A DNA stretch of 32,000 nucleotides. Origin: Candidatus Saccharimonadota bacterium (GTDB lineage Bacteria > Patescibacteriota > Saccharimonadia > Saccharimonadales > UBA4665). The notes beneath the pieces were generated by a model. The model made no database searches and was not told the origin of the DNA. It was given only the letters and a program-made list of their open reading frames with translations. The translations under genes and the position numbers were made by a program. Positions 16,864 to 32,000 of the stretch are shown one piece after another. Every line of letters begins with the position of its first letter. Within the stretch, counting starts at the first letter, position 1. The stretch covers positions 360,001 through 392,000 of the forward strand of contig OY970322.1 of assembly GCA_963716945.1 (NCBI GenBank), written 5' to 3'.

Positions 16864-16892
16864 AAAAGAGCGCCCGGCGAGAGCGCTCTTTT
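16864..16892. terminator. Bidirectional intrinsic terminator between 16S (+) and the 133-aa gene (-)
   Basis: aaaagagcgc / ccggcgaga / gcgctctttt: a 10-bp stem including the A/T flanks. It is followed by a T-run on the plus strand (ttttaattt) and on the minus strand (ttttcttttgg). Confidence 0.75.
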
Positions 16893-16911
16893 AATTTGCG
16901 GGTACAGGCGG

Positions 16912-17313
16912 TTAAGCGACCGTCTCGCCGCCCAGACCTATGGCCGTGACGCCGGAATTTTCGAAGCCGGCCACGAAGAGCATTGAACTTTGGATCAAGC
17001 CGGTGATGCGATTAACCGTTAAATCCTGAGGCTGGGTAGCCATTCCGGCCCGCATTGCGTCCAGGGCCTCTTGTTGGACTTCGGGGTTAGTAGTCATGGG
17101 CAGCAAATCCCCGAAGGCTTCCATGACTTCCTGCATGTCTTCGTCCCTGATCCTGGTTCGGCGCCGGCCTATAAGGCCGGTATAATGGCCCTTTACTCCT
17201 TCGATGCGTTCGTTTAGCCCAGTCAGATGGGCGTTGATCTCTTCGAGCGACAAGCCCCTGAAGTATTCATACTTATCCTGAGTTCTTTGCCGGTCGGCTT
17301 CCGCGTCTCCCAT
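16912..17313 (-). CDS. Hypothetical protein
   Basis: 133-aa ORF, stop 20 nt from the bidirectional terminator. No motif recognised. Confidence 0.55.
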   Translation of the reverse strand: MGDAEADRQRTQDKYEYFRGLSLEEINAHLTGLNERIEGVKGHYTGLIGRRRTRIRDEDMQEVMEAFGDLLPMTTNPEVQQEALDAMRAGMATQPQDLTVNRITGLIQSSMLFVAGFENSGVTAIGLGGETVA

Positions 17314-17420
17314 AAGGCTCTCCTAAATAATCTGCTACTAAATTTACAATAACATTGGCCATAAGTCAAATAATCTAATCCGGTTGCTCGGTACTATGGG
17401 CATGGGTCATACTTGCGTTG

Positions 17421-18320
17421 ATGGATCTTTATCCGACGGTATTGGTGTTTGCCATGGGCGTCAGCTTCAAGGGCTACGTGCTCACCGAGAGGTATTTGCA
17501 GGAGAGGGGAGTGGCGCCGATAAGGACATTCGGGCTGCAGCGGTATGCCATTATTCCCGGCCTCATCTGGGGCGCGGTTTTTATCCGCGGCCATGACCTA
17601 AGCCGAATAATCCATACGCCTCATCTGTTAATTTACGTAATCGCTTTAGCGGCGGGCTGGAACATCCAGCAGTTTTTATCGAGCTACACAGTTAATACGG
17701 TCAGTTCGATGTCGGCCTTTTCGACGCTGCAAATGATACTGCTGTTACCGCTGTCACTGCTGGTCGGCACTTTCTTTAACCATGACGTGCCGAGCGTCTA
17801 TAGCTTCCTAGCCATCGTGGTTTTGCTTATAGCGTTCGTGGTGCATCCCGCGCAGCATGTCGATAATGCCCGGGAACGGTTCGCGATACCTTTAAGGCTT
17901 ATCATAGGACTGATTCTCGTGCAGACGATGGTGGATGCGGCTGACCAGGGCTTGTACCGGCAATTATTGAAAGAATTGGGGCCGGCGGTGGTTCTGGGAG
18001 TTTTCAGCGTGGTAACCCTGGGCCTGGCCATCTTATGGACTTCTTTCGTGCCGAAGCGGCAGCAGGAAACCGAGATCCTGCGCAAGCAGTGGCGCCGGTC
18101 GGCGGCTTTGCCGGGGTTCTGGTTCCTGGGCTCGATTCCGGGGGCCTATGCCATAGCAATCCTGCCGATTTACACCAGCCTGGCCATCAGTACCGTGACT
18201 TTTTTGATGGACGGCTGCTCCGACCTGATCCACCGCCGCATAGGCTTAAGCCCCCGGACGGTGGTTTTTCTGCTACTGGTCATAAGCGGGATAGGGCTGG
18301 CAGTTTACTCTATAAGGTAA
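17421..18320 (+). CDS. Polytopic integral membrane protein (possibly DMT/EamA-like transporter)
   Basis: About 299 aa with about 9-10 hydrophobic segments across the whole length. I prefer the ATG at 17421 over the adjacent TTG at 17418. The family call is tentative. Confidence 0.65.
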   Translation: MDLYPTVLVFAMGVSFKGYVLTERYLQERGVAPIRTFGLQRYAIIPGLIWGAVFIRGHDLSRIIHTPHLLIYVIALAAGWNIQQFLSSYTVNTVSSMSAFSTLQMILLLPLSLLVGTFFNHDVPSVYSFLAIVVLLIAFVVHPAQHVDNARERFAIPLRLIIGLILVQTMVDAADQGLYRQLLKELGPAVVLGVFSVVTLGLAILWTSFVPKRQQETEILRKQWRRSAALPGFWFLGSIPGAYAIAILPIYTSLAISTVTFLMDGCSDLIHRRIGLSPRTVVFLLLVISGIGLAVYSIR

Positions 18321-18326
18321 TCAAAT

Positions 18327-18403
18327 TGGTGGGCGATGAGGGACTCGAACCTCCGACCTCGTCATTATCAGTGACGCGCTCTAACCAGCTGAGCTAATCG
18401 CCC
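18327..18403 (-). tRNA. tRNA-Ile (anticodon GAU), CCA encoded
   Basis: Reverse complement gggcgattagctcagctggttagagcgcgtcactgataatgacgaggtcggaggttcgagtccctcatcgcccacca folds as a cloverleaf. Anticodon loop cuGAUaa, T-loop GGTTCGAGTCC. Confidence 0.95.
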
Positions 18404-18422
18404 GAATTGTCGTAACTTGCCT

Positions 18423-18499
18423 TGGTGGAGCATATCGGATTCGAACCGATGACCCCCTGCTTGCAAAGCAGGTGCTCTAGCCAACTGAGCTAATGCCCC
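18423..18499 (-). tRNA. tRNA-Ala (anticodon UGC), CCA encoded
   Basis: Reverse complement ggggcattagctcagttggctagagcacctgctttgcaagcagggggtcatcggttcgaatccgatatgctccacca. Has the G3:U70 Ala identity pair, anticodon loop uuUGCaa, T-loop GGTTCGAATCC. Confidence 0.95.
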
Positions 18500-18558
18500 T
18501 CGTTTCCGGCCCGTTGGCTGGATTGGCAAGGCCTGGAGCCTTAAGCAAGTACCGGAGT

Positions 18559-18587
18559 ATTTTACCCAAAAAACACTTTAAAGACAA
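18559..18587 (-). promoter_or_regulatory. Candidate promoter for the tRNA-Ala/tRNA-Ile unit (TTGTCT-17-TAAAAT)
   Basis: Minus strand reads TTGTCT (18587-18582), 17 nt, TAAAAT (18564-18559), about 60 nt upstream of tRNA-Ala. Confidence 0.45.
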
Positions 18588-18701
18588 GCGTTGGCTTGAA
18601 TACAAAGATAAGCCGTATCGGCGGCCGCCGCGGCCGGCCGCTTTGCTGAATGGCTGATTTAACCTGTAAAATTAAAAACGTTACTCAACAGCCTAAAAAT
18701 A

Positions 18702-18731
18702 TTGACAGCTATGCATAAGCGGAGTTAAGAT
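18702..18731 (+). promoter_or_regulatory. Candidate promoter TTGACA-18-TAAGAT for the surface-protein/sortase operon
   Basis: TTGACA 18702-18707 and TAAGAT 18726-18731, about 55 nt upstream of the ATG at 18788. Confidence 0.5.
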
Positions 18732-18787
18732 GTAGTCAATCAATGTAAGGCGGAATACACAAAAACTAAACTTATAAAGGCTTGAAA

Positions 18788-20140
18788 ATGAAAATCAAAA
18801 AACTATTAAATGTTGGTTCGGCTTTGTTGCTGAGCCTGTCGGCACTGTTAACGGTATCGATACCGATGGCCCACGCCGCGACTTACACCTGTACCTGGAC
18901 CGATGCCAGCGGCACCGACAACAACTTCAGTACCGCCACCAACTGGTCCAACTGTAACAACGTTGCCCCCGGTACCGGCGGCGACACCTACAACCTGGAT
19001 TTTCCGGCGACCGCGCTCGGTTTTCAACCGGTAGACGACATCGCGTCGCTAACGGTTGGGACCATAAGCTTTGACGGGACGTTCAGCAACCCCAGTAACG
19101 GCGGTTACGACATAACGTCTTCCAGCTCCAGCAACGTTATCACCGTCGGCGGCGGCATTACCGACACCACCGACGGTCCGGGCAACACTTTCGGCACCGG
19201 CAACGAAATCGACGTTAACCTGACGCTGTCCGGCAGCCAGACCTTCAACGCCGGTGTCAACAGCGTGCTAATCCTCGGCGACGGCACCCTTAGCCTGAAT
19301 ACCGGCGCCAACAACCTGACCCTGGGCAACGTCCTGGTCATCAACCCGATCACCGGCAGCGGTTCGTTGATAGTCGACGACTCCAACTACCCGGCCGACG
19401 AAAGCGGCGTTGATTTGCTGGCTTCCAGCCCGAGCTTCACGGGCAGCGTAGCGGTTAACACCGGCGCCCTGTTCGTAGACGATACGGGCTCGCTGTCCAA
19501 TGCCTCCCAGGTAACGGTGGCCAGCGGGGCTTTGCTGAAGGGCGGTGACAACGCTACTGACGGTGGTGTCTCCAACCTGACAGTCCAGTCCGGCGGAACG
19601 GTTGCTCCCGGCCACAGCCCGGGCTGTATAACCGCCTCCAACGCTACGATTAACGGTACTTACCTGGCCCAGATCGGCGGTACCAACGCTTGCGCCGACT
19701 ATGACCAGCTGCAGGTATCGGGCACTGTCGACCTGACCGGCGGCACGCTCCAGACATCCGTAATAAATGGTTTCACGCCGACTGCCGGCCAGACCTTCGA
19801 AATCATTGATAACACCGGCGGCAGCGCCGTAACCGGTACCTTCGCCGGCCTGCCCGAAGGCGCTACCTTCACTTCCGGCGGCGCGACGTTCAAGATTTCA
19901 TATGTCGGCGGCGACGGCAATGACGTTACGCTGACGGTTGTCGGTGCCTCCGGTTCTTCCGGTTCGGGCTCCGGCAGCGGCGCTTCCGGCTCCGGCAGTT
20001 CATCGGCTGCCGCCCCCAAGACGCCTAACACCGGTCTTCGCGCCGTGCTGGCCAACCCGGCCGCTACCTTTGCCGCTTCATCGATTGCCGCCCTGACTCT
20101 CGTTCTAACGGCCCGCCGTTTGAAGCCCGGTGTCCGCTAG
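18788..20140 (+). CDS. Secreted beta-helix/autotransporter-passenger-like repeat protein with C-terminal TPNTG sortase sorting signal
   Basis: Signal peptide MKIKKLLNVGSALLLSLSALLTVSIPMAHA. G/T/N/S-rich beta-strand repeats. SGGTVAPGHSPGCITASNATINGTYLAQIGG...DYDQLQVSGTVDLTGGTLQ...FKISYVGGDGNDVTLTVV resembles the conserved end of autotransporter-associated beta-strand repeat proteins. Then a Ser/Gly linker, PKTPNTG, hydrophobic AASSIAALTLVLTA, and RRLK. ATG 18788 has better RBS spacing (aaagg) than TTG 18782. Confidence 0.8.
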   Translation: MKIKKLLNVGSALLLSLSALLTVSIPMAHAATYTCTWTDASGTDNNFSTATNWSNCNNVAPGTGGDTYNLDFPATALGFQPVDDIASLTVGTISFDGTFSNPSNGGYDITSSSSSNVITVGGGITDTTDGPGNTFGTGNEIDVNLTLSGSQTFNAGVNSVLILGDGTLSLNTGANNLTLGNVLVINPITGSGSLIVDDSNYPADESGVDLLASSPSFTGSVAVNTGALFVDDTGSLSNASQVTVASGALLKGGDNATDGGVSNLTVQSGGTVAPGHSPGCITASNATINGTYLAQIGGTNACADYDQLQVSGTVDLTGGTLQTSVINGFTPTAGQTFEIIDNTGGSAVTGTFAGLPEGATFTSGGATFKISYVGGDGNDVTLTVVGASGSSGSGSGSGASGSGSSSAAAPKTPNTGLRAVLANPAATFAASSIAALTLVLTARRLKPGVR

Positions 20141-20181
20141 TCTCTCGCCCGAGAAATTAAGTACCCAGAGGAGGAAGCCTC

Positions 20182-21261
20182 ATGTCAGAGCGCCAGCGCA
20201 TCGGTCTTGATAATCCGGTGTTTAACGGCCGGCTGCGCCAGCGCACTCCTCAGTTTACCCGGACGCCGCCCCGAGGCGCCGCCTCAGCCGGCCACACCCG
20301 CGGAGCAGGCTATCCGGCCCGCCCCCGGATAGCCGCCGCGCCGGTTCGAAGGCCGGCCCGCGTGCCGGTGGCCGCCGCCCGCCAGGCCAAGCCCGCGCTA
20401 AGGCCCGCCGCAGCGCCAACAGCACTGTCCCGGCCGCCGGTTTTTGCCGTACCGCAAACCCAGCCGGCCCGGCCGGTGCCGGCGCCGCGCCAACAGCACT
20501 CAGAGGTCCTCAAACGCCAGTTTGTCCGCGCGCCCGGTTCGGCTTCGGGTCTTGAACGAAACGGCGGTCCAAGGCGCTGGTGGCGCTATTCCAAGCCGCA
20601 GCAGATGATCATAGGCATGGCCTGCCTGGTATTCGCGCTTGGTCTCGGCGTCAGCTTGCAGGCGCTGCTGACCAACCACAACGCCTCGGCTCAGGTGGCG
20701 GCCTTGTCCAAACAGGTAGACAACCAATCCGGCGGCTCCAATGGCGGCAGTTCGAGTTCGCTGCCCAGCACCACTAAACCGAGCAGCCAGGCCATCAGCA
20801 ACTACGCGGTGGCGCCCGACTTACCGCGTTATCTCGATATTCCCAAACTTAATGTTCACGCCAGGGTGATGCAGGTCGGTGTCACGACTTCCGGCGCTCT
20901 CGGCACCCCCAATAATGTTTTCGATACGGCCTGGTACACCGGCAGCGCCAAACCGGGCCAGCCCGGCGCTACGCTTATCGACGGGCACGTTTCCAGCTGG
21001 ACAACTCATGGAGTTTTTTACAACATTAAGCACCTGGTTAAAGGTGATAATATCCGAATCGTGCGCGGCGACGGCACGATTATCAATTACCAGGTAGTCA
21101 AGACCCAGGTCTACAATGCCGACAACGTTGACATGCAGGCGGCCATAACGCCGGTGACTCCTGGAAAGTCCGGCCTCAACCTGATTACGTGCACCGGCCA
21201 GGTCAAAAAAGGGACCAGCGAGTTTAATGAGCGGGTAATCGTGTTTGCCCAGCAGGTCTAG
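20182..21261 (+). CDS. Sortase (class F-like transpeptidase) with long Arg/Pro/Ala-rich N-terminal extension
   Basis: 359 aa. GAGGAGGA RBS precedes the ATG. TM MIIGMACLVFALGLGVSLQALL. Catalytic-domain pattern LDIPKLNVHARVMQVG...PGATLIDGHVSS...VFYNIKHLVKGDNIRIV...LNLITCTG...ERVIVFA supplies the His, Cys (TC motif) and Arg of sortases. Confidence 0.85.
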   Translation: MSERQRIGLDNPVFNGRLRQRTPQFTRTPPRGAASAGHTRGAGYPARPRIAAAPVRRPARVPVAAARQAKPALRPAAAPTALSRPPVFAVPQTQPARPVPAPRQQHSEVLKRQFVRAPGSASGLERNGGPRRWWRYSKPQQMIIGMACLVFALGLGVSLQALLTNHNASAQVAALSKQVDNQSGGSNGGSSSSLPSTTKPSSQAISNYAVAPDLPRYLDIPKLNVHARVMQVGVTTSGALGTPNNVFDTAWYTGSAKPGQPGATLIDGHVSSWTTHGVFYNIKHLVKGDNIRIVRGDGTIINYQVVKTQVYNADNVDMQAAITPVTPGKSGLNLITCTGQVKKGTSEFNERVIVFAQQV

Positions 21262-21377
21262 CGGCGCCAAACGGCCACCAACTATCTCATCTGTGAAACC
21301 GGCAAATCCGGCCACTCGGCCTTAAAGAGTTTTTAATAATCTGTGCATAAGTCGACCCATAATTGTGTTCAATTTTA

Positions 21378-21406
21378 TTGCACTCCTATGCAACAGGGGC
21401 TACAAT
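21378..21406 (+). promoter_or_regulatory. Candidate promoter TTGCAC-17-TACAAT for the giant gene
   Basis: TTGCAC 21378-21383, 17 nt, TACAAT 21401-21406, 65 nt upstream of ATG 21472. Confidence 0.5.
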
Positions 21407-21471
21407 ATAATCACGTCTTGTAGCACCTGCTTTTAGGCAGGGCATAAAAACAACACGCAAAACAAATCAAA

Positions 21472-24400
21472 ATGGCAATCGAAAACAACGGCTTAGACGG
21501 GGTTAACCAGGGACTGGATTATGATTCCAGCCTGGAAACCGGCACCGGCTTGACGCCGCCGCCCCAAGATACGCCGCCGCAACCGCAAGGCCATGCCTTC
21601 CGGCGGTTCTTTAGCGTGCCTTACCACCGGGCTTTGCTGCTGACTAATGCCATCATCATCGCCATCATCCTGCTGATTGGCGGAACTTTCTTCCTGCTGT
21701 CGGCTCACTCCAAACAACCCTCGAACGATTCGACGGGCAACAAGCCGACCAGCTATGCCACCTCGTCTTTGCCCGTCCAAAACGTCCAGACCAACGAGCA
21801 GCTCCAGATCAGCGAAGCCAACCAACTGTCCATCAACGGCCAGGTGACTATCGGTGACACGCTGGTTTTGTCGCCGACCGCTACGCCGGCCAGCCCGGTC
21901 ACCGGCCAGATATACTACAACCAGTCCAACAACACGCCGTACTACTACAACGGCAGCCAGTTCGTCAGCTTGGCACCGAACGCCGTGCCGCAACAGTACG
22001 TTTCTTCTCTGGGCGGCAGTGCCGGCGGCATAGGGGTCGGCAGCAGTTTAACGCTGTCAGGCAACCAGCTGAACGTGTCACCGGGTTTGCTGCAGACAAT
22101 TTCGTCGCTGTCTTCGACTACCGGCAGCCTAAGCGGTCCGCGGGTTACCAGTCTGCAGGGTTTGACCGGCGCGGTCACCTTGTCGGCCGGTCCCGGCATC
22201 AGCCTAAACGGTACGACCATTGCCAGCAGCGGGGTGTTAAGCCTGGTTTCGGGTTCGGCCAGCATTGCCGTTAGCAACAACGGCAACGGCAATTACACCG
22301 TCAGCGAGACGCCAAACGCCGGCGTAACCTTGCTGAACGGTTTGGGCGGTGTCCTGGTCCTGGCCAACTCGGCCGGTTCCGGCAGTACCATAACCATCGA
22401 CAACGCCGCAGCCGACGGGTCCACCAAAGGTATCGCTACTTTCAATTCGACTAACTTTACGGCCGCCGGCGGCGTGGTTAACACTATCCAGGACGTTGAC
22501 ATAGCGGCTACCCCGACGTTCGCCGGACTGACCGTCCAGGGGGCCGGCGGGCTGACAATCGGCCTTCCGGGTACGAATAACGGCCAGCTTAAACTGGCCA
22601 ATTCGACCGGCAGCCAAGAGGTCGTCTTGCAAGGCCTGAACCCCAGCGGCATCGGCGGCAACGCGACTATCGACTTCCCGAGCATTGCCGGCGGCACCAC
22701 CGATACGGTTTGTCTCTTCAGCCTGGGCAACTGTTCGGCGGCCGGCAACGGCGTGACCAGCCCTGGCGGCACCACCAACCAGGTCGCTAAGTTCACCGGC
22801 TCGAGGGTCGTCGGCGACTCCGGCATAACCGATGACGGCACCAACGTGACGATTGGCGGCGGAGAAGGACTGGTCGCCGGTACGATAACGGCTTCGACTT
22901 TGCAGAGTGCCGGTACGCTTAGCATTACCCCGGGCGCCAACCTAACCCTCGGTGCCTCCAACCACCAGTTCCTGCTGCAGGGCAACGGCGGTTCGACGCT
23001 GAGCGTCAGTTCCAGCGGCAATACGACGACGGTCGGGTTTGTCTTGCCGACCGCTAACCGGACAATTAACTTCCCGGATGAGTCAGGTACCGTCTGTTTG
23101 CAGAACTCGCCGAACTGCGGTTTCGCGGCCGGTGGCAGCGGCGTGACCTCCCTGAACGGCCTGACCGGCGTCCTGAGCATTGCCGATGCCACCGGTGCCG
23201 GTTCGACGGTCACCATCCAGGACGCTTCGACCAGCCAACTGGGCCTGGCCCAGTTTAACGCTTCCGACTTCACTGTCAGTTCCGGCGTAGTCGATACTAT
23301 ACAGGGGATTACGACCGGATCGAGCGTTCAATTCGGCAGCTTGACACTGGGCACTGGCGGCAATTTGAACGTATCCCCGACCGGCACGCTGTTCGTCGAC
23401 ACGATCAAGACCACGCTGACCGGCTCCGGCAATATCTCGATTTACTCCGATGGCGCCGGCAGCAATATAAACTTTTATACCGATGGCGGCGCTAACAGCT
23501 TCATGTTCCCGACCACCGGCGGTACCGGCCAAACTATCTGTACCAGCGGCATAACGTGTGCGTCGGGTGGCGGCCAGGCGGTCATTCTGGAGCCGGGCAC
23601 CGGCAGCGGTACGGTCCAGACGGCCAGCTCCAACCGCACGGCCATCTGGGTCAACAAGGCTTCCGGCAGCGGCAACCTGATCGAGCTGCAGGATGGCGGC
23701 AATGACGCTTTCGTGATCGATAACGCCGGCAACACCACGATTACGACCGGATCCGTAACGAATAACTTCTCGGTCGGCGGTACGCTTGGCGTTAACACGA
23801 TTACGCCGACCGGTTCGCTGACCATCGGCGCCACCAACCAGGCCTTCACGCTGCAGGGTAACAGCGGTTCGGTTATCACGGCTACCGGCGGCGGCGCGCT
23901 GACTTCGGTCGGCTTCGCTATCGGCAGCGGTCCGACGGCGCCGAATGGCAACGTCACCTACCAGTTCGAGAATGACAACAACGTTTCGCCCGGTACTTAC
24001 ACGGTTTGTACCACGGCCGGCAACTGCGCCGGTGTCGGCGGCAGTATTACCGGGACAGGTACGGCCGGCAAGCTGGCGGTCTTTACCGCGCCGGGTGCCA
24101 TCGGCAGCTCGATCATAAGCGATAACGGCAGCGGTACGGTGACGGTCGGCGGCAATCTGGCCGTCGGTACGAGCGGCGCCAGCCAGTTATCGCTGGGCGT
24201 GGCCTCCGGCGCTGACGGCACGCTGGTGTTCAATAACTCCACCAACAATAACCTGGTGACAATCCAGGAGGCGGCTGCGCCGGCGGGCAACGTCACTATC
24301 AAACTGCCGAACCAGAGCGGTACGGTGGCCGTGTCGGCCACCGGGCCCCTGTCGCTTGACGCGACCACCGGGCAGCTGTCGTGCGCCACCTGTTTGACGA

Positions 24401-27400
24401 GTGGCGGCGGCGGGGCCGGCGGCGTCACCTCCCTGAACGGCCTGACCGGCGTCCTGAGCATTGCCGATGCCACCGGTGCCGGTTCGACGGTCACCATCCA
24501 GGACGCTTCGACCAGCCAACTGGGCCTGGCCCAGTTTAACGCTTCCGACTTCACTGTCAGTTCCGGCGTAGTCGATACTATACAGGGGATTACGACGACT
24601 TCCAGCCCGACGTTTAATAATCTGACGCTGCAGGGTGCCACCGGTTTGACTATCGGTAGCGCGACCAACCTGGGCCAGCTGATGTTCAAAGACGGCACGG
24701 CCGACGGCTTCACGTCCAAGTTCAGTCCGGCTACCCTTACCGGCAACCAAACGATTACCGTACCGAACGCCTCCGGCACGCTGGCGGTGTCGGCTTCCGG
24801 CAACCTAAGCCTGTCGGCGCTGGGGGCTTTGACGATTACCAACAGCCCGACCTTCAGTGGCAACTTGACTGTCCAGGGCTCCGGCGGCATAACCGTCGGT
24901 ACCAACTCACAGCCCGGCAACTTGGTGCTTGAGGACGGCAACGGCGCCAGCAACCACACGGCCACGCTGCAGCCTTTCGCGACGCTCGGACAGGACACTG
25001 TCTACACCTTGCCGGACCCGGGCACGGGCACGGTTAACATCTGTCTTAGCACCGGTAACTGTGCCGGCGCCGGGGCAGGGGTCACGGCCAGCAGCCCGAC
25101 CCAGAATTACGTACCTAAGTTCGGGGTCGGCAATGTTATCGCCAACTCCGAGCTATACGATAACGGCTTCGTCGGGGTAAACACCGTTACTAATAAGGGC
25201 CAGCTGTCGGTAGTCAGCGGCGGTGCGGGCGAGAGCAGCCTCTACGTCCAGCAGAGCGCGGCCAGCGCCACCGTTCCCGTCGCTATTATCCAGGGCGGTG
25301 CCACGCCCGGCGCCGGCGCCGACTTATTGGATTTGAAGACCAGCAGCTCGGTAGTCGCCAAGTTCGACAATGCCGGCAACCTGAGCAACACCGGTACTAT
25401 TAGCGCCGGCACCGGTTTCCAGGTCAATGGCGCGGCGCCTTCGGGCGACTACCTGAGAGGCAACGGCACCAGTTATGTCGCCAGCGCGCTGCTGGCCGGC
25501 GACTTGAGCGGCACATTATTCAGTTTGCAAGCTAGCGGCGGCGCCAGCCAGGCGGTTGTTAGCGGCGGCACGGTTTCGATTCTGGCCGGCAGCAGCGGCA
25601 ATTTGACGACAACCGCCAGTGCCACCGATACGGTGACTGTCGATATAGTTAATAATCCGACTTTCACAGGTGATGTTACGCTCAGCGGGTCGGGTACCGG
25701 GTTAAGTGTCACTAACTCAGCTACGATCGGTAACGGCCTGACCGTTTCGGCCGGCGGCGCCGCCATAACCGGCAACTCGACAATTAACGGTACGCTTGGT
25801 TCGCTGACCGGCCTGAGTTCGTCCGGCACGATTACGTTTAGCGGCCTGGGCACCGGTGTTCTACAGGCCACGTCGGGCGTGCTTAGTGCTTACGGCGGGG
25901 GCCTGGTCACCGGTATAGTCGATGGCGTGGGCACCAGCCACAGCGGCGCCATAACGATTAGCAACTCTACCTATACCGGCCCCAGCACGATTACGATTAA
26001 CAATGCCAAAGCCGACGGCTCGACCAAGGGCATAGCGACCTTTAACGCGACCAACTTCCAGGATAACGGCTCCGGCGTCATCAATACCATCCAGGATATA
26101 TCGAGCAGTTCGTCGCCGACCTTCAGCAACCTTAATGTTCAGGGCTCCACCGGTTTGACCGTCGGCGTGGCCGGCAGCACGGTCGGCAACCTCATCCTGG
26201 CCAATGCTACCAGCGGCCGTGAAGTTATCCTGCAGGGCGCCAACCCGACCCTCGGTACCGGCGGCAACGCCACGATTACCATACCGTCCATAGCCGGCGG
26301 CGGCAGCGATACGGTCTGTTTGCTGACACTGGGCAACTGTACGGGGGGAACGGTTAGCGTTTCCGGCAGCGCTACCGCCAACTACGTAACCAAATTCACC
26401 GGTACGGGTAACGCCATTTCTACTTCGCAGATTTTTGACAACGGTTCGTTTGTCGGTATTAACACAACAACCAACAGCGGCCAGCTATCGGTAGTCAGCG
26501 GCAGTACCGGCGAAAGCGGACTGTACGTCCAGGAAAGCGCGGCCAGCGCCACCGTACCGGTAGCCGTTATCCAGGGCGGTGCCATGCCCGGCGCCGGCGC
26601 CGACTTATTGGATTTGAAGACCAGCAGCGCCCTGGTCGCCAAGTTCGACAATGGCGGCAACCTGCAGTTCCAGCAGGCCAGCACGGTGAACATAGCTTCG
26701 GCCGCCACCGGCACCCAGCTGACCGTTAAAGGCGGGTCCGCCACAGCCAGTACCAACGCCGGCGGCAATCTATTGCTGGAGGGCGGTGCCGGTGCCAGTA
26801 CCGGTGCCAGCGGCTCGGTTATCGTCCAGTCTAACGGTAATAACTCGACTACCGCTTTTGAAGTCCAAAACGCCGGCAGCCAAAACCTGCTCCAGGTCGA
26901 TACCGTTAATAACGGCATCACCTTGAACGGCGGCAACAGCGGCGCTACCAACAGCTGGTCTACCAACGCCAACGCCTTGCCGACCGCCTTGGCTTGCTCG
27001 ACTTCGGTCACCGCCAACGGCTACGTCTATCTCATCGGCGGCAACACCGCCGGTTGTGGCAGCGTCAGTGCCGTTTCCACCGTCTACTACGCCAAACTCA
27101 ACGCCGACGGCAGCACCGGTACCTGGACAACTAACGCCAACGCTTTGCCGGCCGCCCGCAACTGTGCCACTTCGGTCACCGCCAACGGCTACGTTTACGT
27201 TATGGGCGGTGCCAGCGGTTCCAGCAGCTGTAACGGCACCGTCCAGTCGACCGTCTACTACGCCAAACTTAACAGTGACGGCAGCACCGGTGCCTGGACC
27301 ACCGGTTCCAACCCGCTGCCGACGGCTCTAGCCTGTGCCACTTCGGTCACCGCCAACGGCTATGTCTACGTCATCGGCGGCGGCAGCGGCGCCAGTGGTT

Positions 27401-30400
27401 GTAACGGCACGGCCGTTTCTACCGTCTACTACGCCAAACTCAACGCCGACGGCAGCACCGGTGCCTGGACCACCAGCGCCAACCCGTTAACGGCCGCCCG
27501 CGCCTGTGCCACTTCGGTCACCGCCAACGGCTACGTTTACGTTATGGGCGGTGCCAGCGGCGCCTGCGGCGGCAGCGGCACCGTCCAGTCGACCGTCTAC
27601 TACGCCCAGCTTAACAGCGACGGCAGTACCAGCGGCTGGACGACCAACGCCAACGCCTTGCCGGCCGCCCGCGCCTGCGGCAGTTCGGTTGCGGCCAACG
27701 GCTATGTCTACTTCCTGGGCGGCAGCAGCGGCACCGGCGGAGCCTGTAACCTCGGTACCGCCCAGGCCACCGTCTACTACGCCCAACTAAGCAACAACGG
27801 CAGTACTGGTACCTGGACGACCAACGCCAACGCCTTGCCGACTGCCGAAGCCTGCACCAGTTCCATCACGGTCAACGGCTACATTTATGTCATCGGCGGC
27901 AGCACTGGCAGCAACGTGTGTGGCAGTGGTACTGCCGCTTCCACCGTTTACTACGCGTCGTTGGCCCGGATTACGGTCAATGCTTCGCTTGACCTGGTCG
28001 GTCTGCAGGGCGGTAACCTGTCTAACCCCGGCGATCAAAGCACGGGCTCGGCCGGCGGTTCATTGACGGCCGGCAACGGCCTGTTCGTTGGCAGCTTGCA
28101 GGTACAGGGGCAAACCAGCCTGGCCCAGGGCTTAGCTGTCAACGGCAATGTGACGGCTAACGGCTCGGCTCTCTTCCAGGATAATACCAACTCGACGACT
28201 GCCTTCCAGATCCAGGGGTCGGCCGGGTCGGCCGCCGCCGTCCTAACGGCTGACACGGTTAACAGCCGCATCGGCGTGGATGTTACTTACGCGGCCATGG
28301 GCGCACCCACCCAAAACAACACCAGTACTGCGACTACCGGCGGCACCTTGGCCGCCACGACTTATTACTATAAGGTTACCGCCCTAGATGCCGCCGGCGG
28401 CGAGAGCCTGCCTTCGAACGAGAAAAGCCAAGTTACCACCGGTTCCACAAGTACGGTTACCCTTACCTGGACCTCGGTAACCGGCGCCGTCGCTTATAAG
28501 ATTTACCGTGGTACCACGGCTCTGGGAGGTTCCGGCTCCGAGGTCTACCTGACCACGACTACCGGGACGGCCAGTGCAGGCAATCTTACGTATGTTGACA
28601 CGGGTTCGGTTACTGCCGGCGCTGCCACGCCGCCAACTTCGAACACGGCTTATGTCGCCACTAACACTTCCAGTAGCAACCTGCAATTGAGCGTCGGCGG
28701 CATCGGTACCCCGACCGGCCAGCTATACGTAGCCGGCCTGCTGCCGGCCTCTACTATCGGTAGCGTGAGCACCGGCACTGCCGTACAGGGGGTATACGTC
28801 CAAGGCCGCTACGCCTACACTGTTAGCAGCGGCACCAACACCTTGCAAGTCATTGACGTATCCAGTCCCAATACTCCGGTCAGCGTCGGCAGTGCCGCTG
28901 TCGGCACGTCTCCCGGTGGCGTCTATGTCCAAGGCCGCTACGCTTACGTTACCGGTACGGGTACCAACCTCTTCTTGGTCTACGATGTTTCCAATCCGGC
29001 CAGTCCGGCCAAAGTCGCCAGCCTTTCCACGGGCGCCAGTTCGACGCCGGGTCCGCTCTACGTCTCCGGCCGCTACGCTTACGTGGCCGACACCGGTACC
29101 GATAATATTCAAATATTCGACATTTCCAACCCTCTGACTCCGGTCAGTGTTGCTACCATCTCTACAGGTGCCTCGACCGTTCCAAAATCAATTTACGTCC
29201 AAGGCCGCTACGCTTACGTAGTCGCCACCACCTCGACTTTTGAAGTCTTTGATGTTTCCAACCCGGCCAGCCCAGTTATGGTCAGCGATGTTTCGACCGG
29301 CAGCCAAAGTCCCGCCGCCGTCTACGTCCAAGGCCGCTACGCTTACGTATCCGGTTCTGCCAGCAGCGGCAACTTCCAGGTCTTTGATGTTTCCAACCCG
29401 GCCAGCCCGGTCATAGTAGGTAGTACCTTAATCGCCAGTAACTCCTTTACCGGAGCGGGGATTTACGTCCAAGGCCGCTACGCTTACGTAACCAGCGGTT
29501 ACCCCGGCGTCAGCACGCCGGCTTTCTCCGCTGTCGACATCTCCGACCCGGTTGCGCCGCACGTAATCGGCACGACTATGACCACCAGTAGCACCTTTGC
29601 CCTAAAGACCGTCTATGTCCAAGGCCGTTACGCTTACGTAGGCGATAACGACGGGGGCACGCTGCAGATATTCGACTTGGGCGGCACCTACACGCAGGAG
29701 CTGCAGGCCGGCGGCATCGAGGCTAGCACCCTGCAGGTTGACTCTAACGCCTCGGTCGCCGGCGACGAGTCCATACAAGGCGGCTTGAGTCTGGGGGCTA
29801 ACCTCCAGGTAGCCGGCAACGCCGGTATCAACGGCAACCTTAACCTGACTGCCAGCACTATCAGTACGCCTACCGCGCCGACGCTTACTTCCAGCGGCAG
29901 CGGCGGTACTCTGGCCGCCGCGACATATTACTATCAGCTGGCCGCCGTTGGCGCCGACGGTACTACCGCCGCCGTGGCTTCCAGTCCGGCCAGCGTTACG
30001 GATAGCGGCTCCACCAGTAAGAACACCTTGACCTGGTCGGCGGTGACGGGCGCCACGGCTTACATAGTTTACGAGTCGACCAACGGCACGACCTGGTTTT
30101 ATAACGAAGTCACTTCCGGCACGACCTCGATAGTTGATAACGGCACTAACTTTACCTGGACAAACTCGGGCACGCCGCCGAGTACCTCGACGACCGGCGG
30201 TAACCTGACGGTTGGCGGTACGGTTCTGTTCCAAACCAAAGCCAACTCTACTACCGCTTTCCAAGTCCAAAACGCCGCCGGCAACAACTTCATCCAGGTA
30301 GATACCAACGGTGCCAACCTTTATCTTGGTAACACCGGCATCGCCAGCACGATCCAGGTCGGCAACACCACCGGGGCCGTTGCCCAGACTATCGATATCG

Positions 30401-32000
30401 GCAACAACGCCACCGCCAGCTCTTCGACAACCTTAGTCATCGGTTCGACTGTCGGTACCAGTCCGGTGACTGTCCAGTCCGGTACTTCCGGCACCACTTT
30501 CACGCCGGCCGGTGGCAGCTCCAACACCGGCGTGCTGGTAAAACCGGTGTCTAACACCACTGCCGCCTTCCAAGTCCAAAACACCAGTAACGCCGCCGTC
30601 CTGAACGTCGACGCGACTAACGGCACCACCACCCTGCAGGTGGCCACCGGCAACGACACGGCCACCCTTGGCGCCAACCTGGCCCCGACCAACTTCAGCA
30701 CCGGCTGGACCGGCACCAACTGGACGCTCGCCAGCACCACTGCCGCCCACAACGCCCTGTCCGGCCACACCCAGGCCTTGTCGCCGACCACGCCCTTGGC
30801 CACCACCTCCGGCCAGGTCTACCAGATCAGCTACACCATCACCAACCCGACTACCGCCGGCACCAGCCTGACGGTGGCCCTGGGCAGCACTACCATAGCC
30901 TTCTACAACTTCGACGCTAACACGGCCGGCACCTACAGCTTCACCGACACCGTCATGGCGACCGCCCCCAGCAATAATGCCAACCTGACCTTCACGCCTG
31001 ATGCCTCCGGCCTGTTCACCGGCACCATATCGGCCGTTTCGGTCCAACTGGTGACCCAAAGCACCCACCCGGCTCTGGTAGTCGACAACGCTTCCGGCAA
31101 CCCCAACGTCCAGCTGCGGGCCAGTTCCGACACCCACAGCCTGCTCTTAGGCTTTGACGCCGGCGAATCCAACAGCAGCGGCACCAACAACACCGCCGTC
31201 GGTACCTATAGCTTGCAGGACAACGGCAGCGGTTCCTCCAACGTCGCCGTCGGTACCTTCGCTCTCCAGAATAACGCTTCCGGCAACGACAACAGCGCCT
31301 TGGGCTACGAGGCTCTCCAGTTCAACACTTCCGGCGGCCAGAACACGGCTATCGGCTACAATACTCTCAGCAGCAACACCACCGGCAGTTACAACGTGGC
31401 TGTCGGCAGCAACGGCCTGGCGTCCAACACCTTAGGCTACTCCAACACCGCCGTCGGCATAGCCACCTTGCAGAACAACACCACCGGCTCCGGCAACATA
31501 GCCCTGGGCAACAACACCTTGGAGAACAACACCACCGGCAACGGCAACATCGGCATCGGCGGCCTGGGCGATAACACTACCGGCAGTAACAACGTCGCTA
31601 TCGGCGGCCTGGGCAGCAACAATGGTTACTCCAACGTCGCTGTTGGTACCTTCAGCCTATACAACAGCACCGGCGTCAGCAACGACACAGCCATCGGTTA
31701 CCAGGCTTTGCAAAACGACGTCGGCGGCAGCTACAACGTCGGCCTGGGCTACGGCGCCAACGTGCTCAACGGCAGCCTGAACCTTAGCGGCGCCGACGCC
31801 ATCGGGGCCGGCACTCAAGTCGGTGCCAGCAATACCACTATCCTGGGCTACGGCCTTGCCAACGGCGCCAACCAGGCCGTCGGCATCGGCACGTCCTTCG
31901 CCCCCAACGAACTGACGGTCAGCCCGCAGACTTACGGCACCAACGGCACCGTAGGCAGCGGCACGACCATCACCCAGGGCAGCGGCTCCGGTACGGTTAC
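21472..32000 (+). CDS. Giant membrane-anchored mosaic surface protein (more than 3,509 codons, 3' end beyond window): fibre-like modules, Kelch-like propeller, FN3-like, LVIVD-like propeller, Asn/Gly/Thr repeat
   Basis: I translated frame 1 (aligned to the line starts) by hand from ATG 21472 to 32000 and found no stop codon. N-terminus MAIENNGLDGVNQGLDYDSS...FRRFFSVPYHRALLLTNAIIIAIILLIGGTFFLLSAH gives a TM anchor. No frame-1 plus-strand ORF is listed in the track for this span, as expected if open-ended ORFs were omitted (infC at the other edge is also missing). Confidence 0.88.
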   Translation, partial: MAIENNGLDGVNQGLDYDSSLETGTGLTPPPQDTPPQPQGHAFRRFFSVPYHRALLLTNAIIIAIILLIGGTFFLLSAHSKQPSNDSTGNKPTSYATSSLPVQNVQTNEQLQISEANQLSINGQVTIGDTLVLSPTATPASPVTGQIYYNQSNNTPYYYNGSQFVSLAPNAVPQQYVSSLGGSAGGIGVGSSLTLSGNQLNVSPGLLQTISSLSSTTGSLSGPRVTSLQGLTGAVTLSAGPGISLNGTTIASSGVLSLVSGSASIAVSNNGNGNYTVSETPNAGVTLLNGLGGVLVLANSAGSGSTITIDNAAADGSTKGIATFNSTNFTAAGGVVNTIQDVDIAATPTFAGLTVQGAGGLTIGLPGTNNGQLKLANSTGSQEVVLQGLNPSGIGGNATIDFPSIAGGTTDTVCLFSLGNCSAAGNGVTSPGGTTNQVAKFTGSRVVGDSGITDDGTNVTIGGGEGLVAGTITASTLQSAGTLSITPGANLTLGASNHQFLLQGNGGSTLSVSSSGNTTTVGFVLPTANRTINFPDESGTVCLQNSPNCGFAAGGSGVTSLNGLTGVLSIADATGAGSTVTIQDASTSQLGLAQFNASDFTVSSGVVDTIQGITTGSSVQFGSLTLGTGGNLNVSPTGTLFVDTIKTTLTGSGNISIYSDGAGSNINFYTDGGANSFMFPTTGGTGQTICTSGITCASGGGQAVILEPGTGSGTVQTASSNRTAIWVNKASGSGNLIELQDGGNDAFVIDNAGNTTITTGSVTNNFSVGGTLGVNTITPTGSLTIGATNQAFTLQGNSGSVITATGGGALTSVGFAIGSGPTAPNGNVTYQFENDNNVSPGTYTVCTTAGNCAGVGGSITGTGTAGKLAVFTAPGAIGSSIISDNGSGTVTVGGNLAVGTSGASQLSLGVASGADGTLVFNNSTNNNLVTIQEAAAPAGNVTIKLPNQSGTVAVSATGPLSLDATTGQLSCATCLTSGGGGAGGVTSLNGLTGVLSIADATGAGSTVTIQDASTSQLGLAQFNASDFTVSSGVVDTIQGITTTSSPTFNNLTLQGATGLTIGSATNLGQLMFKDGTADGFTSKFSPATLTGNQTITVPNASGTLAVSASGNLSLSALGALTITNSPTFSGNLTVQGSGGITVGTNSQPGNLVLEDGNGASNHTATLQPFATLGQDTVYTLPDPGTGTVNICLSTGNCAGAGAGVTASSPTQNYVPKFGVGNVIANSELYDNGFVGVNTVTNKGQLSVVSGGAGESSLYVQQSAASATVPVAIIQGGATPGAGADLLDLKTSSSVVAKFDNAGNLSNTGTISAGTGFQVNGAAPSGDYLRGNGTSYVASALLAGDLSGTLFSLQASGGASQAVVSGGTVSILAGSSGNLTTTASATDTVTVDIVNNPTFTGDVTLSGSGTGLSVTNSATIGNGLTVSAGGAAITGNSTINGTLGSLTGLSSSGTITFSGLGTGVLQATSGVLSAYGGGLVTGIVDGVGTSHSGAITISNSTYTGPSTITINNAKADGSTKGIATFNATNFQDNGSGVINTIQDISSSSSPTFSNLNVQGSTGLTVGVAGSTVGNLILANATSGREVILQGANPTLGTGGNATITIPSIAGGGSDTVCLLTLGNCTGGTVSVSGSATANYVTKFTGTGNAISTSQIFDNGSFVGINTTTNSGQLSVVSGSTGESGLYVQESAASATVPVAVIQGGAMPGAGADLLDLKTSSALVAKFDNGGNLQFQQASTVNIASAATGTQLTVKGGSATASTNAGGNLLLEGGAGASTGASGSVIVQSNGNNSTTAFEVQNAGSQNLLQVDTVNNGITLNGGNSGATNSWSTNANALPTALACSTSVTANGYVYLIGGNTAGCGSVSAVSTVYYAKLNADGSTGTWTTNANALPAARNCATSVTANGYVYVMGGASGSSSCNGTVQSTVYYAKLNSDGSTGAWTTGSNPLPTALACATSVTANGYVYVIGGGSGASGCNGTAVSTVYYAKLNADGSTGAWTTSANPLTAARACATSVTANGYVYVMGGASGACGGSGTVQSTVYYAQLNSDGSTSGWTTNANALPAARACGSSVAANGYVYFLGGSSGTGGACNLGTAQATVYYAQLSNNGSTGTWTTNANALPTAEACTSSITVNGYIYVIGGSTGSNVCGSGTAASTVYYASLARITVNASLDLVGLQGGNLSNPGDQSTGSAGGSLTAGNGLFVGSLQVQGQTSLAQGLAVNGNVTANGSALFQDNTNSTTAFQIQGSAGSAAAVLTADTVNSRIGVDVTYAAMGAPTQNNTSTATTGGTLAATTYYYKVTALDAAGGESLPSNEKSQVTTGSTSTVTLTWTSVTGAVAYKIYRGTTALGGSGSEVYLTTTTGTASAGNLTYVDTGSVTAGAATPPTSNTAYVATNTSSSNLQLSVGGIGTPTGQLYVAGLLPASTIGSVSTGTAVQGVYVQGRYAYTVSSGTNTLQVIDVSSPNTPVSVGSAAVGTSPGGVYVQGRYAYVTGTGTNLFLVYDVSNPASPAKVASLSTGASSTPGPLYVSGRYAYVADTGTDNIQIFDISNPLTPVSVATISTGASTVPKSIYVQGRYAYVVATTSTFEVFDVSNPASPVMVSDVSTGSQSPAAVYVQGRYAYVSGSASSGNFQVFDVSNPASPVIVGSTLIASNSFTGAGIYVQGRYAYVTSGYPGVSTPAFSAVDISDPVAPHVIGTTMTTSSTFALKTVYVQGRYAYVGDNDGGTLQIFDLGGTYTQELQAGGIEASTLQVDSNASVAGDESIQGGLSLGANLQVAGNAGINGNLNLTASTISTPTAPTLTSSGSGGTLAAATYYYQLAAVGADGTTAAVASSPASVTDSGSTSKNTLTWSAVTGATAYIVYESTNGTTWFYNEVTSGTTSIVDNGTNFTWTNSGTPPSTSTTGGNLTVGGTVLFQTKANSTTAFQVQNAAGNNFIQVDTNGANLYLGNTGIASTIQVGNTTGAVAQTIDIGNNATASSSTTLVIGSTVGTSPVTVQSGTSGTTFTPAGGSSNTGVLVKPVSNTTAAFQVQNTSNAAVLNVDATNGTTTLQVATGNDTATLGANLAPTNFSTGWTGTNWTLASTTAAHNALSGHTQALSPTTPLATTSGQVYQISYTITNPTTAGTSLTVALGSTTIAFYNFDANTAGTYSFTDTVMATAPSNNANLTFTPDASGLFTGTISAVSVQLVTQSTHPALVVDNASGNPNVQLRASSDTHSLLLGFDAGESNSSGTNNTAVGTYSLQDNGSGSSNVAVGTFALQNNASGNDNSALGYEALQFNTSGGQNTAIGYNTLSSNTTGSYNVAVGSNGLASNTLGYSNTAVGIATLQNNTTGSGNIALGNNTLENNTTGNGNIGIGGLGDNTTGSNNVAIGGLGSNNGYSNVAVGTFSLYNSTGVSNDTAIGYQALQNDVGGSYNVGLGYGANVLNGSLNLSGADAIGAGTQVGASNTTILGYGLANGANQAVGIGTSFAPNELTVSPQTYGTNGTVGSGTTITQGSGSGTV
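23146..23315 (+). repeat. Copy 1 of a perfect 170-bp in-frame intragenic duplication
   Basis: acctccctgaacggcctgaccggc...atacaggggattacgac is identical base for base to 24427-24596. It encodes TSLNGLTGVLSIADATGAGSTVTIQDASTSQLGLAQFNASDFTVSSGVVDTIQGITT. Confidence 0.95.
24427..24596 (+). repeat. Copy 2 of the perfect 170-bp duplication (offset 1281 nt = 427 codons)
   Basis: Compared base by base with 23146-23315. Identity breaks immediately outside both ends (g/c at -2, c/g at +1). Confidence 0.95.
26950..27965 (+). repeat. Six tandem Kelch-like blades (168-177 nt each) inside the giant CDS
   Basis: The unit W(T/S)T..N.LP.A(R/L).C..SVTANGYVYV(I/M)GG....C.....STVYYAKLN.DGSTG starts at 27001, 27169, 27340, 27511, 27682 and 27859. 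Confidence 0.8.
28780..29690 (+). repeat. Seven tandem LVIVD-like repeats (129-150 nt each) inside the giant CDS
   Basis: The core (V/I)YVQGRYAYV...(F/I)(Q/E)V(F/I)DVSNPASPV occurs at 28792, 28921, 29056, 29191, 29320, 29461 and 29611. The DNA core tacgtccaaggccgctacgcttacgta is identical in copies 4-6. Confidence 0.8.
31189..31764 (+). repeat. About 12 tandem 17-residue (51-nt) Asn/Gly/Thr-rich repeats, N(T/V)A(V/I)G..(A/S)L..N(T/A)(T/S)G..
   Basis: The N-x-A-x-G motif starts at 31189, 31240, 31291, 31342, 31393, 31444, 31495 and 31546 (exact 51-nt period), then 31591, 31633, 31684 and 31735. Confidence 0.8.

Follow-up and report, generated by a model that had tools for sequence, protein, structure and literature searches.

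The stretch of DNA analysed here (the window) comprises 32,000 nt of contig OY970322.1 (positions 360,001 to 392,000, forward strand) from assembly GCA_963716945.1 of a Candidatus Saccharimonadota bacterium. From position 21472 to its end at position 32000 it carries, on the forward strand, the first 3,509 codons (94%) of a giant gene of 3,724 codons, as seen from a stop-free frame 1 and from the identity of its translation to the database protein P0187. The product is very probably a real and intact extracellular fibre protein of modular build, anchored at its N-terminus. As our best inference from the sequence we propose, with a probability of about 0.6, that this giant fibre is an adhesin acting in host contact and possibly a determinant of host range. 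Giant modular fibrillar adhesins as such are already known. This one departs from them in its transmembrane anchor with a conserved cytoplasmic motif, in a lineage-specific and undescribed stalk module, in the presence of two beta-propeller families together with repeats and a tip of the phage-tail-fibre type, and in its membership of a very large family unrecognised by present annotation resources.

Reading frame and integrity of the giant gene

Between the ATG at position 21472 and the end of the window, translation of frame 1 yields 3,509 codons and 0 stops; the other five frames contain 36-230 stops across the same interval. From the base composition about 98 stops would be expected, and the probability of finding none is approximately 5e-44. 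The original prediction, made by a model from the letters and a list of open reading frames (ORFs), had claimed an ORF of at least 10.5 kb from this ATG, and the frame is open up to the window end. The frame is indeed missing from the list, as the prediction pointed out, which omits ORFs running off the end of the source. The antisense ORFs across the giant gene are the usual shadows of GC-rich coding DNA. The GC content at third codon positions (GC3) lies between 0.70 and 0.85 in every 1.5-kb slice of the gene, and at 0.78-0.81 in gyrA and gyrB of the same window. Because of this uniformly high GC3, frame 1 reads as native coding sequence throughout. Since an in-frame TAA is located at position 21445, the ATG at 21472 is the earliest possible start. 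On a Logan short-read contig (L007, run ERR11523672), which is equal to window positions 18471-23175, genes were called independently and the same start was chosen. A sigma-70 promoter scan upstream of the gene found no promoter; such a scan is not informative for this lineage.

The full length of the product is known from P0187, which was found with residues 1-1200 as the query in a full scan of 1.84 billion representative proteins. P0187 has 3,724 aa, and its residues 1-3,509 are identical to the window translation. It is encoded on a contig of 1,099,440 bp, together with the sortase, the gyrB product and other proteins of the window. According to its length just 215 aa lie beyond the window, and the stop is expected at about 32644-32646. 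These last 215 aa are known from the protein P0187 and not from window DNA. The predicted giant size thus stands (3,724 aa for the full product), but the gene ends soon after the window. With the same query, 743 cluster representatives were obtained at E<=1e-3 and 297 at E<=1e-30. The domain counts for the family given below refer to 141 new representatives among the best 150 of the 743.

A 170-nt segment within the gene is repeated exactly at 23146-23315 and 24427-24596 (both on the forward strand), with flanks that are unrelated to each other. The two copies are 1,281 nt apart, and a second pair, 85% identical, occurs at 25168 and 26449 with equal spacing, which suggests recent gene conversion between stalk modules. 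The other internal repeats are all below 90% identity at the DNA level, mostly at 63-86%. The Logan contig L007 stops 30 nt into the first 170-nt copy, as is expected from the behaviour of de Bruijn assembly at a true repeat. Such breaks explain why relatives in databases of metagenome-assembled genomes (MAGs) are nearly all 'partial'. Variation by a diversity-generating retroelement was considered for this repeat and rejected. Such an element would come with a nearby reverse transcriptase and a pair of repeats differing at adenines, but the sole near-identical pair shows no difference over its 170 nt, and each copy is coding. Among the ORFs listed for the 21 kb upstream none is reverse-transcriptase-like; ten of them were scanned against Pfam.

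The 170-nt repeat, at which short-read assembly breaks, is the one place where a mis-join is conceivable, and the internal repeats are what could be held in favour of a chimera of several shorter repeat genes. Against a chimera speak the frame that stays open over 3,724 codons, the even codon signal and an order of parts typical of the family. Further arguments are the agreement of the independent Logan assembly with the window over the 5' 1.7 kb of the gene, the low DNA identity of all repeats except one pair, and the existence of hundreds of similarly long relatives with a shared order from the N- to the C-terminus, many of them on contigs of about 1.1 Mb. A gene for a prophage or tailocin tail fibre could also be imagined, because C-terminal parts of the product resemble phage proteins. 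The 21 kb upstream, however, are devoid of phage genes, the protein carries an N-terminal transmembrane anchor, and the neighbouring genes are gyrB, gyrA, 16S and tRNA genes. Taken together, an assembly artefact, a dead gene or a phage-derived gene is highly improbable, and we treat the frame as an intact cellular gene.

Anchor, stalk and distal modules

The protein starts with a cytoplasmic tail of residues 1-50 (21472-21621), supported by an alignment of 18 family N-termini. The tail contains the motif YDSSLE at residues 17-22 (21520-21537) and, immediately N-terminal of the transmembrane helix, the basic stretch FRRFF..YHR. All 18 aligned N-termini retain (Y/N)(D/N)SSLE, followed by a basic stretch of the type F(R/K)(F/Y)N(K/R). 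This conserved extension may mark a dedicated export or localisation route. In concept, the YDSSLE region recalls ESPR and YSIRK, the conserved extensions of the signal region in other giant adhesins. Residues 51-78 (21622-21705) form the sole transmembrane helix or signal anchor and the only 19-residue hydropathy window above 1.9 in 3,509 aa, which agrees well with the one transmembrane segment predicted at about 21620-21700 behind a short cytoplasmic tail. In the family an N-terminal hydrophobic segment is found in 118 of the 141 representatives, with a median start at residue 56. For the 121 family representatives with a detectable transmembrane segment, the mean net charge of the 15 aa preceding it is +2.5, compared with +0.6 after it. 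A single helix and this positive-inside charge bias point to an N-in/C-out signal anchor or to an extended, constrained signal peptide.

A membrane-proximal domain, presumably extracellular, follows at residues 79-282 (21706-22317; including 'SPTATPASPVTGQIYYNQSNNTPYYYNGSQFVSL'). It is conserved in 112 of the 141 representatives and its signature reads 'GQIYYN...YYYNGSQFVSL'. Residues 104-178 of this domain match PHROG families without assigned function weakly (E=7e-6).

Self-similarity delimits a stalk of residues 283-1820 (22318-26931), which includes the fibre-like modules predicted at about 22330-26345. The stalk modules have about 270-430 aa, open with 'GVTSLNGLTG', hold paired cysteines (C-x5-6-C; seven close pairs in the whole stalk) and are mutually 32-65% identical. 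The stalk matches no entry of Pfam, NCBIfam, PHROGs or the PDB sequences, and residues 283-990 have no match in 50,697 phage records. The module is present in 140 of the 141 representatives with up to 20 copies per protein. AlphaFold2 (AF2) modelling of a stalk monomer from a 31-sequence alignment resulted mostly in coil (predicted local distance difference test (pLDDT) 66, predicted template modelling score (pTM) 0.39). Such a poor model would be compatible with an elongated or intertwined oligomeric fibre and proves nothing.

Beyond the stalk the modules are separated by a short linker. Its first copy, 'NSTTAFEVQN...LLQVDT', is located at 26842-26904, three more copies at 28189-28251, 30244-30306 and 30553-30615, and a fifth NSTTAFQVQN...VDT linker lies beyond the window at residue 3580 of P0187. 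The predicted NSTTAFQVQN units were therefore all recovered within a few nucleotides of the positions proposed for them. Linkers of this type flank modules in relatives, too.

The first distal module is a six-blade Kelch beta-propeller (residues 1827-2165, 26950-27966), as had been predicted for 26950-27965. It is recognised above the Pfam gathering scores in 6 stretches (PF24681 59.5 bits, cut-off 50; Kelch_6 47.9, cut-off 25.3; Kelch_1 42.3, cut-off 20.1), matches Kelch chains of the PDB with E=2e-8 and is visible at the DNA level as six copies with a spacing of 168-177 nt. When segments of one to three blades are compared with each other, they share 60-71% identity. A second propeller of seven LVIVD blades occupies residues 2430-2745 (28759-29706). 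Here, PF08309 scores 120.1 bits (cut-off 20.2) over 7 stretches with seven GRYAY motifs, in agreement with the LVIVD-like propeller of the original prediction. Its view that two different propellers in one polypeptide are unusual is not supported by the comparison with the family, since Kelch and LVIVD co-occur in at least 5 of the 141 representatives and either of them occurs in dozens.

The Kelch propeller also bears on the possibility that the fibre is a surface enzyme platform, the modules of which degrade or modify host wall polysaccharide in the manner of a mutarotase, lyase or hydrolase. The region exceeds the cut-off of the Pfam family NANM (52.5 bits, cut-off 45), and some relatives carry CBM_4_9, LamG or hyaluronidase-type Pfam matches elsewhere in the protein. 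The scores for the NanM/YjhT mutarotase entries of NCBIfam, on the other hand, are far below the curated cut-offs (NF010730, 67.6 bits against 416; TIGR03547, 58.5 against 256); the resemblance is one at the fold level only. The curated cut-off is not reached by any catalytic family of NCBIfam, and the Pfam scans gave neither a glycoside hydrolase nor a lyase domain. Moreover, Kelch segments that are 60-71% identical would fit a recently amplified binding scaffold better than an asymmetric active site. Hence, we consider an enzymatic role improbable and favour binding as the task of the propellers.

Each propeller is accompanied by a module resembling fibronectin type III (FN3). FN3-like module 1 spans residues 2272-2400 (28285-28671) and was identified by a profile search against the PDB, FN3-like module 2 spans residues 2791-2922 (29842-30237) and is a paralogue of the first (32% identity to residues 2221-2392, E=3e-13). 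A five-sequence profile, which included module 2, retrieved the Fn3-like structure 3mpc with E=4.9e-5 and, more weakly, 5g56, 5j7k and 1k85. The order of the fold is seemingly permuted, as an F-G-like hairpin ('YYYKVTA') precedes the A-E part ('LTW..GA.AYKIYR'). Thus, the two FN3-like modules of the original prediction are paralogous and are backed by an FN3 profile match in the PDB (E=5e-5), but the Pfam family fn3 has no match in the giant protein.

Residues 3055-3220 (30634-31131, 'NFSTGWTGTNWTL...') constitute a conserved module of about 165 aa, which was delimited by identity in relatives: it is 49-61% identical in P0001 and P0172 and present in 6 of the 141 representatives. Its sole profile match in the PDB, to legume lectins, is weak (E=0.019). 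The module may be a lectin-like or jelly-roll-like beta-sandwich. A beta-sandwich had been proposed for 30660-31080, and of this proposal the conserved module stands whereas the fold is unconfirmed.

The following residues 3225-3470 (31144-31881) consist of 17-residue repeats of the type 'NTAVG..AL.NNTTG.', which Tandem Repeats Finder detects in the gene as a 51/45-nt repeat, in line with the predicted 51-nt periodicity. They match PHROG families of virion structural and tail spike proteins (E=3e-26 to 5e-24) and, by tblastn, tail-fibre and tailspike genes in 98 phage records (34-45% identity). Thousands of bacterial 'tail fiber domain-containing' proteins are also matched with 39-46% identity, and these usually end in a Peptidase_S74 chaperone (PF13884). 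The PHROG matches emerged when the protein was scanned in pieces, which gave significant PHROG and sub-threshold NCBIfam matches; scans of the uncut sequence against both were empty. Short cousins of the repeat block are found on a 1.2-Mb chromosome (MFD01633.bin.c.3; L002, 359-9908), where three tandem genes encode proteins of 955, 893 and 1,271 aa, the first two of which show 17-residue repeats followed by Peptidase_S74.

The last 254 residues begin at 31882 and reach the window end at 32000 with their first part; the remainder is taken from P0187. Past the window end follow a small 'WTTGMVGGTIYY' module, the fifth linker and a tip of about 110 aa, which ends ...HTYVWNYFNAQ. Neither Peptidase_S74 nor any other Pfam family is found in the last 215 aa, and S74 is absent from the first 3,509 aa as well. 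A tip of this class with the consensus ...NGHIITGG...SG.DT.G.IT...F...Y..AP.V.LTP...TY.F.Y.V.Q is conserved in 52 of the 186 family proteins that were compared, where it makes up the very C-terminal end; the 186 comprise the 141 representatives, fragments from the homology searches and P0001. The AF2 model of the tip is a confident 8-strand beta-sandwich with a mean pLDDT of 81 (core 87-97, one loop 75). With this model, the only significant structural matches of Foldseek were two proteins of uncultured Caudovirales in BFVD (604 and 884 aa) with E-values of 2.4e-7 and 7e-8, 34% and 28% identity and template modelling scores of 0.62 and 0.61, respectively. The weaker viral matches that follow are mostly entries for tail fibres, gp53-like proteins, H-type lectins and receptor-binding proteins. 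Foldseek against the PDB found nothing significant, the best weak matches being CBM2, an R-type pyocin fibre, an H-type lectin and a tailspike C-terminus, and a profile of the tip has no match among the PDB sequences. No relative of the tip was detected in the 50,697 GenBank phage records by tblastn or in IMG/VR by a close search.

A conserved N-terminal region with alternative C-terminal classes is superficially reminiscent of contact-dependent inhibition (CDI), Rhs and MafB systems, in which case anchor and stalk would deliver a variable C-terminal effector domain to a neighbouring cell. The predicted tip, in contrast, is a beta-sandwich of about 110 aa like those of fibre tips and lectins and corresponds to no known toxin fold. 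A toxin match in Pfam is lacking, no pre-toxin or cleavage motifs were seen, and in the three related loci described below (L021, L022, L025) no small immunity-like gene directly follows the family gene. A polymorphic toxin or contact-dependent effector is consequently very unlikely, and a receptor-binding tip is the preferred interpretation of the C-terminus.

A mosaic family and its chromosomal setting

All features that define the family, namely the YDSSLE-type tail, the transmembrane segment, the proximal domain and the GVTSLNG...C-x5-6-C stalk, are present in the giant protein. The members range from about 1 to 6.7 kaa in length. Distal to the stalk the content varies. Among the 141 representatives Kelch is found in 24, FN3-like modules in 17, the 17-residue repeats in 16, LVIVD in 15 and the sandwich module in the 6 mentioned above. 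These variable counts characterise the distal part as a mosaic. At least five classes of C-terminal ends recur in the family.

The named relatives are almost all fragments from Saccharimonadales or Saccharibacteria MAGs, and several members are encoded on contigs of about 1.07-1.15 Mb. Automatic names such as 'fibronectin-binding autotransporter adhesin', 'parallel beta-helix repeat protein' and 'beta strand repeat-containing protein' are uninformative. No paper on this fibre family was found in a full-text literature search of limited coverage. A word-indexed homology search returned no proteins above about 1,250 aa, and only fragments of the family were seen there. In general, giant proteins are easily under-annotated, by length-limited homology searches on the one hand and by whole-protein hmmscan runs, which missed the PHROG and NCBIfam matches, on the other.

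The assignment of the window to Saccharibacteria, assumed in the original prediction, is strengthened by three observations that agree with each other. The sequences that we take to be six TM7-specific primer and probe targets all occur in the window 16S with 0 mismatches, GyrB clusters at 90% identity with a protein of a Candidatus Saccharimonadales bacterium MAG, and the named relatives of the giant protein almost all belong to the same group. A genome of 1.10 Mb is in keeping with the assignment, too.

Three related loci show how the gene is placed in other chromosomes. The first (L021), on a 1.07-Mb nanopore contig, shares the order gyrB-gyrA-16S-tRNAs with the window, with 75-88% identity for GyrA and 86% for 16S. 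Right after the tRNAs it encodes a homologue of about 2,000 aa, which is split by frameshifts. Its anchor region is 44% and its tip 55% identical to those of the window protein, and stalk and repeats are present; the propellers are missing. In the second (L025, 1.09 Mb) a tRNA pair, 23S-5S and three small genes precede P0188 (3,383 aa, 10001-20152), which contains several Kelch domains and a C-terminal class different from that of the window protein. About 8 kb upstream of P0188, at 1-2213, lies another giant gene. Its product of 2,885 aa has a CBM_4_9 domain and ends in the tip class of the window protein ('...QHTYIWNYFNAQ', 54% identity). Two members about 8 kb apart mean that paralogues with different tips exist in one genome. 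The third locus (L022-L024) harbours P0147, a full-length member of 1,205 aa with the tip class of the window protein, followed by a Laminin_G_3 protein. The giant gene has thus long been part of the chromosome; its distal parts change fast, and it has several paralogues within a genome.

The arrangement of the rRNA genes around the fibre genes departs from the usual one. The complete 16S gene of the window (15173-16671, forward strand) is not followed by a 23S gene. A tRNA-Ile(GAT)/tRNA-Ala(TGC) pair, which usually resides in the rRNA spacer, is located at 18327-18499 on the reverse strand, opposite to 16S and 1.7 kb downstream of it; two ORFs separate the pair from 16S. The 16S-tRNA layout is shared by L021 (3916-6291), and in L025 (2218-7095) the tRNA pair is found just upstream of 23S-5S. 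The window, L021 and L025 alike have a giant fibre gene at a distance of no more than a few kb from these rRNA/tRNA genes.

Directly upstream of the giant gene is a sortase gene (20182-21261, forward strand; PF04203, 76 bits), which ends 210 nt before it. It is preceded by a gene for a secreted protein of 450 aa (18788-20140, forward strand), which ends in TPNTG, a transmembrane segment and a basic tail. A DUF11/DUF7927 protein encoded at 7356-8777 on the reverse strand ends in LPNTG and a transmembrane segment. Both were identified by ORF and Pfam scans, and their ends indicate that the organism uses [LT]PNTG as a sorting motif.

This neighbourhood might suggest that the giant protein itself is a sortase-dependent, wall-anchored adhesin of the LPXTG type or a component of a sortase-assembled pilus, and the original prediction recommended a search for a [LT]PNTG signal at its C-terminus. 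The complete product has none: [LT]PxTG occurs nowhere in the 3,724 aa, a C-terminal hydrophobic segment is absent, and the protein ends in ...HTYVWNYFNAQ. An LPXTG-type motif was detected in 1 of the 141 representatives. Neither a sortase nor a homologue of the 450-aa protein was found near the related genes in L021, L022 and L025, from which it follows that the adjacency of the sortase is not conserved among these loci. The obvious target of the adjacent sortase is the 450-aa TPNTG protein. Canonical sortase anchoring of the giant fibre is refuted by the missing C-terminal signal, and there is hardly any chance left for sortase dependence in general; we retain the N-terminal helix as the anchor.

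Farther upstream (3684-6773, forward strand) a protein of 1,029 aa with an N-terminal transmembrane segment and a long Pro/Ala-rich C-terminal tail is encoded. It shows sub-threshold matches to AAA_22, DUF87/HerA and TraG-D_C and is possibly a VirD4/TraG-type coupling ATPase of a patescibacterial type IV secretion system.

Candidate role in host contact

For Saccharibacteria, close-range surface adhesins that are still unidentified have been proposed to act after type IV pili, with host wall glycans as receptors (PMC11623550), and several surface proteins that resemble adhesins are reported to be indispensable for epibiotic growth (PMC10633639). For an obligate epibiont the envelope of the host is the most plausible target of a surface fibre. 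Against this background, surface exposure, oligomeric state, ligand and the contact with a host are features that we predict from the sequence for the giant fibre. The transmembrane helix would tether the fibre to the cytoplasmic membrane by its N-terminus. Proximal domain and stalk would then span the wall, so that the distal modules protrude by tens of nanometres beyond it. There the propellers, the putative lectin-like module and the tip could attach to glycans or proteins on the surface of another cell, the most plausible one being the host bacterium. In this way the fibre may provide a close-range adhesion step after the first contact mediated by pili. Its specificity would evolve by an exchange of distal modules and tips, as is the case for receptor-binding proteins of phages.

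Phage tail fibres and tailspikes share several features with the giant fibre. The 17-residue repeats are homologous, the tip has a predicted fold like that of C-termini of uncultured-phage proteins, and the polarity with an attached N-terminus and a C-terminal receptor-binding tip is the same. In endosialidase tailspikes a propeller precedes fibre repeats, which recalls the order in the giant fibre. In contrast to phage fibres, the giant fibre lacks Peptidase_S74, is encoded by a cellular gene, has a transmembrane anchor and is several times longer. Its stalk has no phage match either, in that residues 283-990 are unmatched in the 50,697 phage records and residues 283-1825 in PHROGs.

The giant adhesins of the RTX or 'LapA-like' type in Gram-negative bacteria (MpIBP, LapA, FrhA) share the arrangement with an N-terminus at the cell, repeated extenders and binding modules near a free C-terminus, and they resemble the giant fibre in their megadalton-class size and strain-variable module content. 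The giant fibre differs from them in the absence, according to Pfam, of RTX repeats (HemolysinCabind), of a type I secretion signal and of Ig-like or Big-type extenders. Moreover, it is anchored by a helix in the cytoplasmic membrane of a monoderm-type cell rather than by a plug in an outer membrane, and its stalk modules belong to no known family.

Sortase-anchored LPXTG adhesins of Gram-positive bacteria (MSCRAMM, Ebh and SasG-type proteins) are likewise large and repetitive proteins of a monoderm-type surface, and a sortase is adjacent here, too. Their polarity, however, is opposite to that of the giant fibre, which has an anchored N-terminus, a free C-terminus and no LPXTG-type signal. In addition, it carries a long conserved cytoplasmic extension at the N-terminus instead of a standard signal peptide. 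With trimeric autotransporters (YadA/Hep_Hag) it has in common the short Asn/Gly/Thr-rich repeats of the type 'NTA.G..A' and the fibrous adhesin character, and automatic annotation at JGI uses the name of a trimeric autotransporter for some relatives of the C-terminal repeats. The membership in YadA-head families considered in the original prediction was not borne out by Pfam, which gave no match to YadA_anchor or Hep_Hag in the whole protein or in pieces. The giant fibre has no YadA_anchor barrel, its anchor is N-terminal and the organism has no outer membrane. Finally, the PilX2/PilY1-type pilus-tip adhesins of the Saccharibacteria type IV pilus T4P-2 (PMC11623550) likewise possess propellers for which binding of host glycans or glycoproteins is proposed. 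The giant fibre, on the contrary, is no pilin, is directly anchored in the membrane, combines two propeller families and is far larger.

The sequence names no ligand, and several paralogues of the family can occur per genome. Both would also suit a general-purpose surface fibre of unchanged architecture but with a target other than the host, which might serve in biofilm or particle attachment, in the cohesion of epibionts, as a protective glycocalyx-like coat or as a decoy against phages. Giant modular RTX adhesins of free-living bacteria often bind abiotic or varied surfaces. Nevertheless, all cultivated Saccharibacteria are obligate epibionts, and a specificity determinant would be expected to show just this rapid turnover of modules and tips at a conserved locus. 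Further close-range adhesins are moreover called for in published models (PMC11623550). We therefore regard a general-purpose fibre as unlikely, and an adhesin for host contact as the better description.

Several points weigh against the assignment as a host-contact adhesin. Apart from binding, propellers of the Kelch and LVIVD families can serve as enzymes or scaffolds, and the lectin-like sandwich is unconfirmed. At the N-terminus, the hydrophobic segment could be a retained anchor or a cleaved long signal peptide. The stalk has no recognisable fold and its AF2 monomer is poor, which makes any length or oligomeric state of the fibre a guess. The final 215 aa, including the tip, rest on the database protein P0187. 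The viral matches of the tip come from viromes and may be mislabelled cellular proteins of the Candidate Phyla Radiation (CPR), because ultrasmall CPR cells pass the filters used for virome preparation.

A more far-reaching proposal can be derived from the mosaic architecture. Saccharibacteria, and perhaps other CPR epibionts, might recognise their hosts by means of cell-anchored fibres resembling phage tail fibres, in which anchor and stalk are conserved and the propeller or lectin cassettes and the tips interchangeable. The exchange would take place by recombination at the NSTTAFQVQN linkers between paralogues, between strains and possibly with phages of the same host. The repertoire of fibres would set the host range and YDSSLE would mark a dedicated route of export or positioning. 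In this full form the proposal is tentative and rather doubtful. If it is true, the set of giant genes fixes the host range of an epibiont in much the way in which tail fibres determine that of a phage.

Among the means by which ultrasmall CPR epibionts select and retain their hosts, type IV pili are the only well-supported factor. The giant gene described here, one of at least 743 clusters, is a concrete and testable candidate for the close-range adhesins that have been posited. A conserved anchor in combination with shuffled distal modules and tips is the evolutionary signature of a specificity determinant. Short-read MAGs and length-limited searches systematically fragment or overlook the family. 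Its recognition would improve the annotation of Saccharibacteria, and it would give geneticists with tractable strains specific genes and domains for deletion, exchange or expression.

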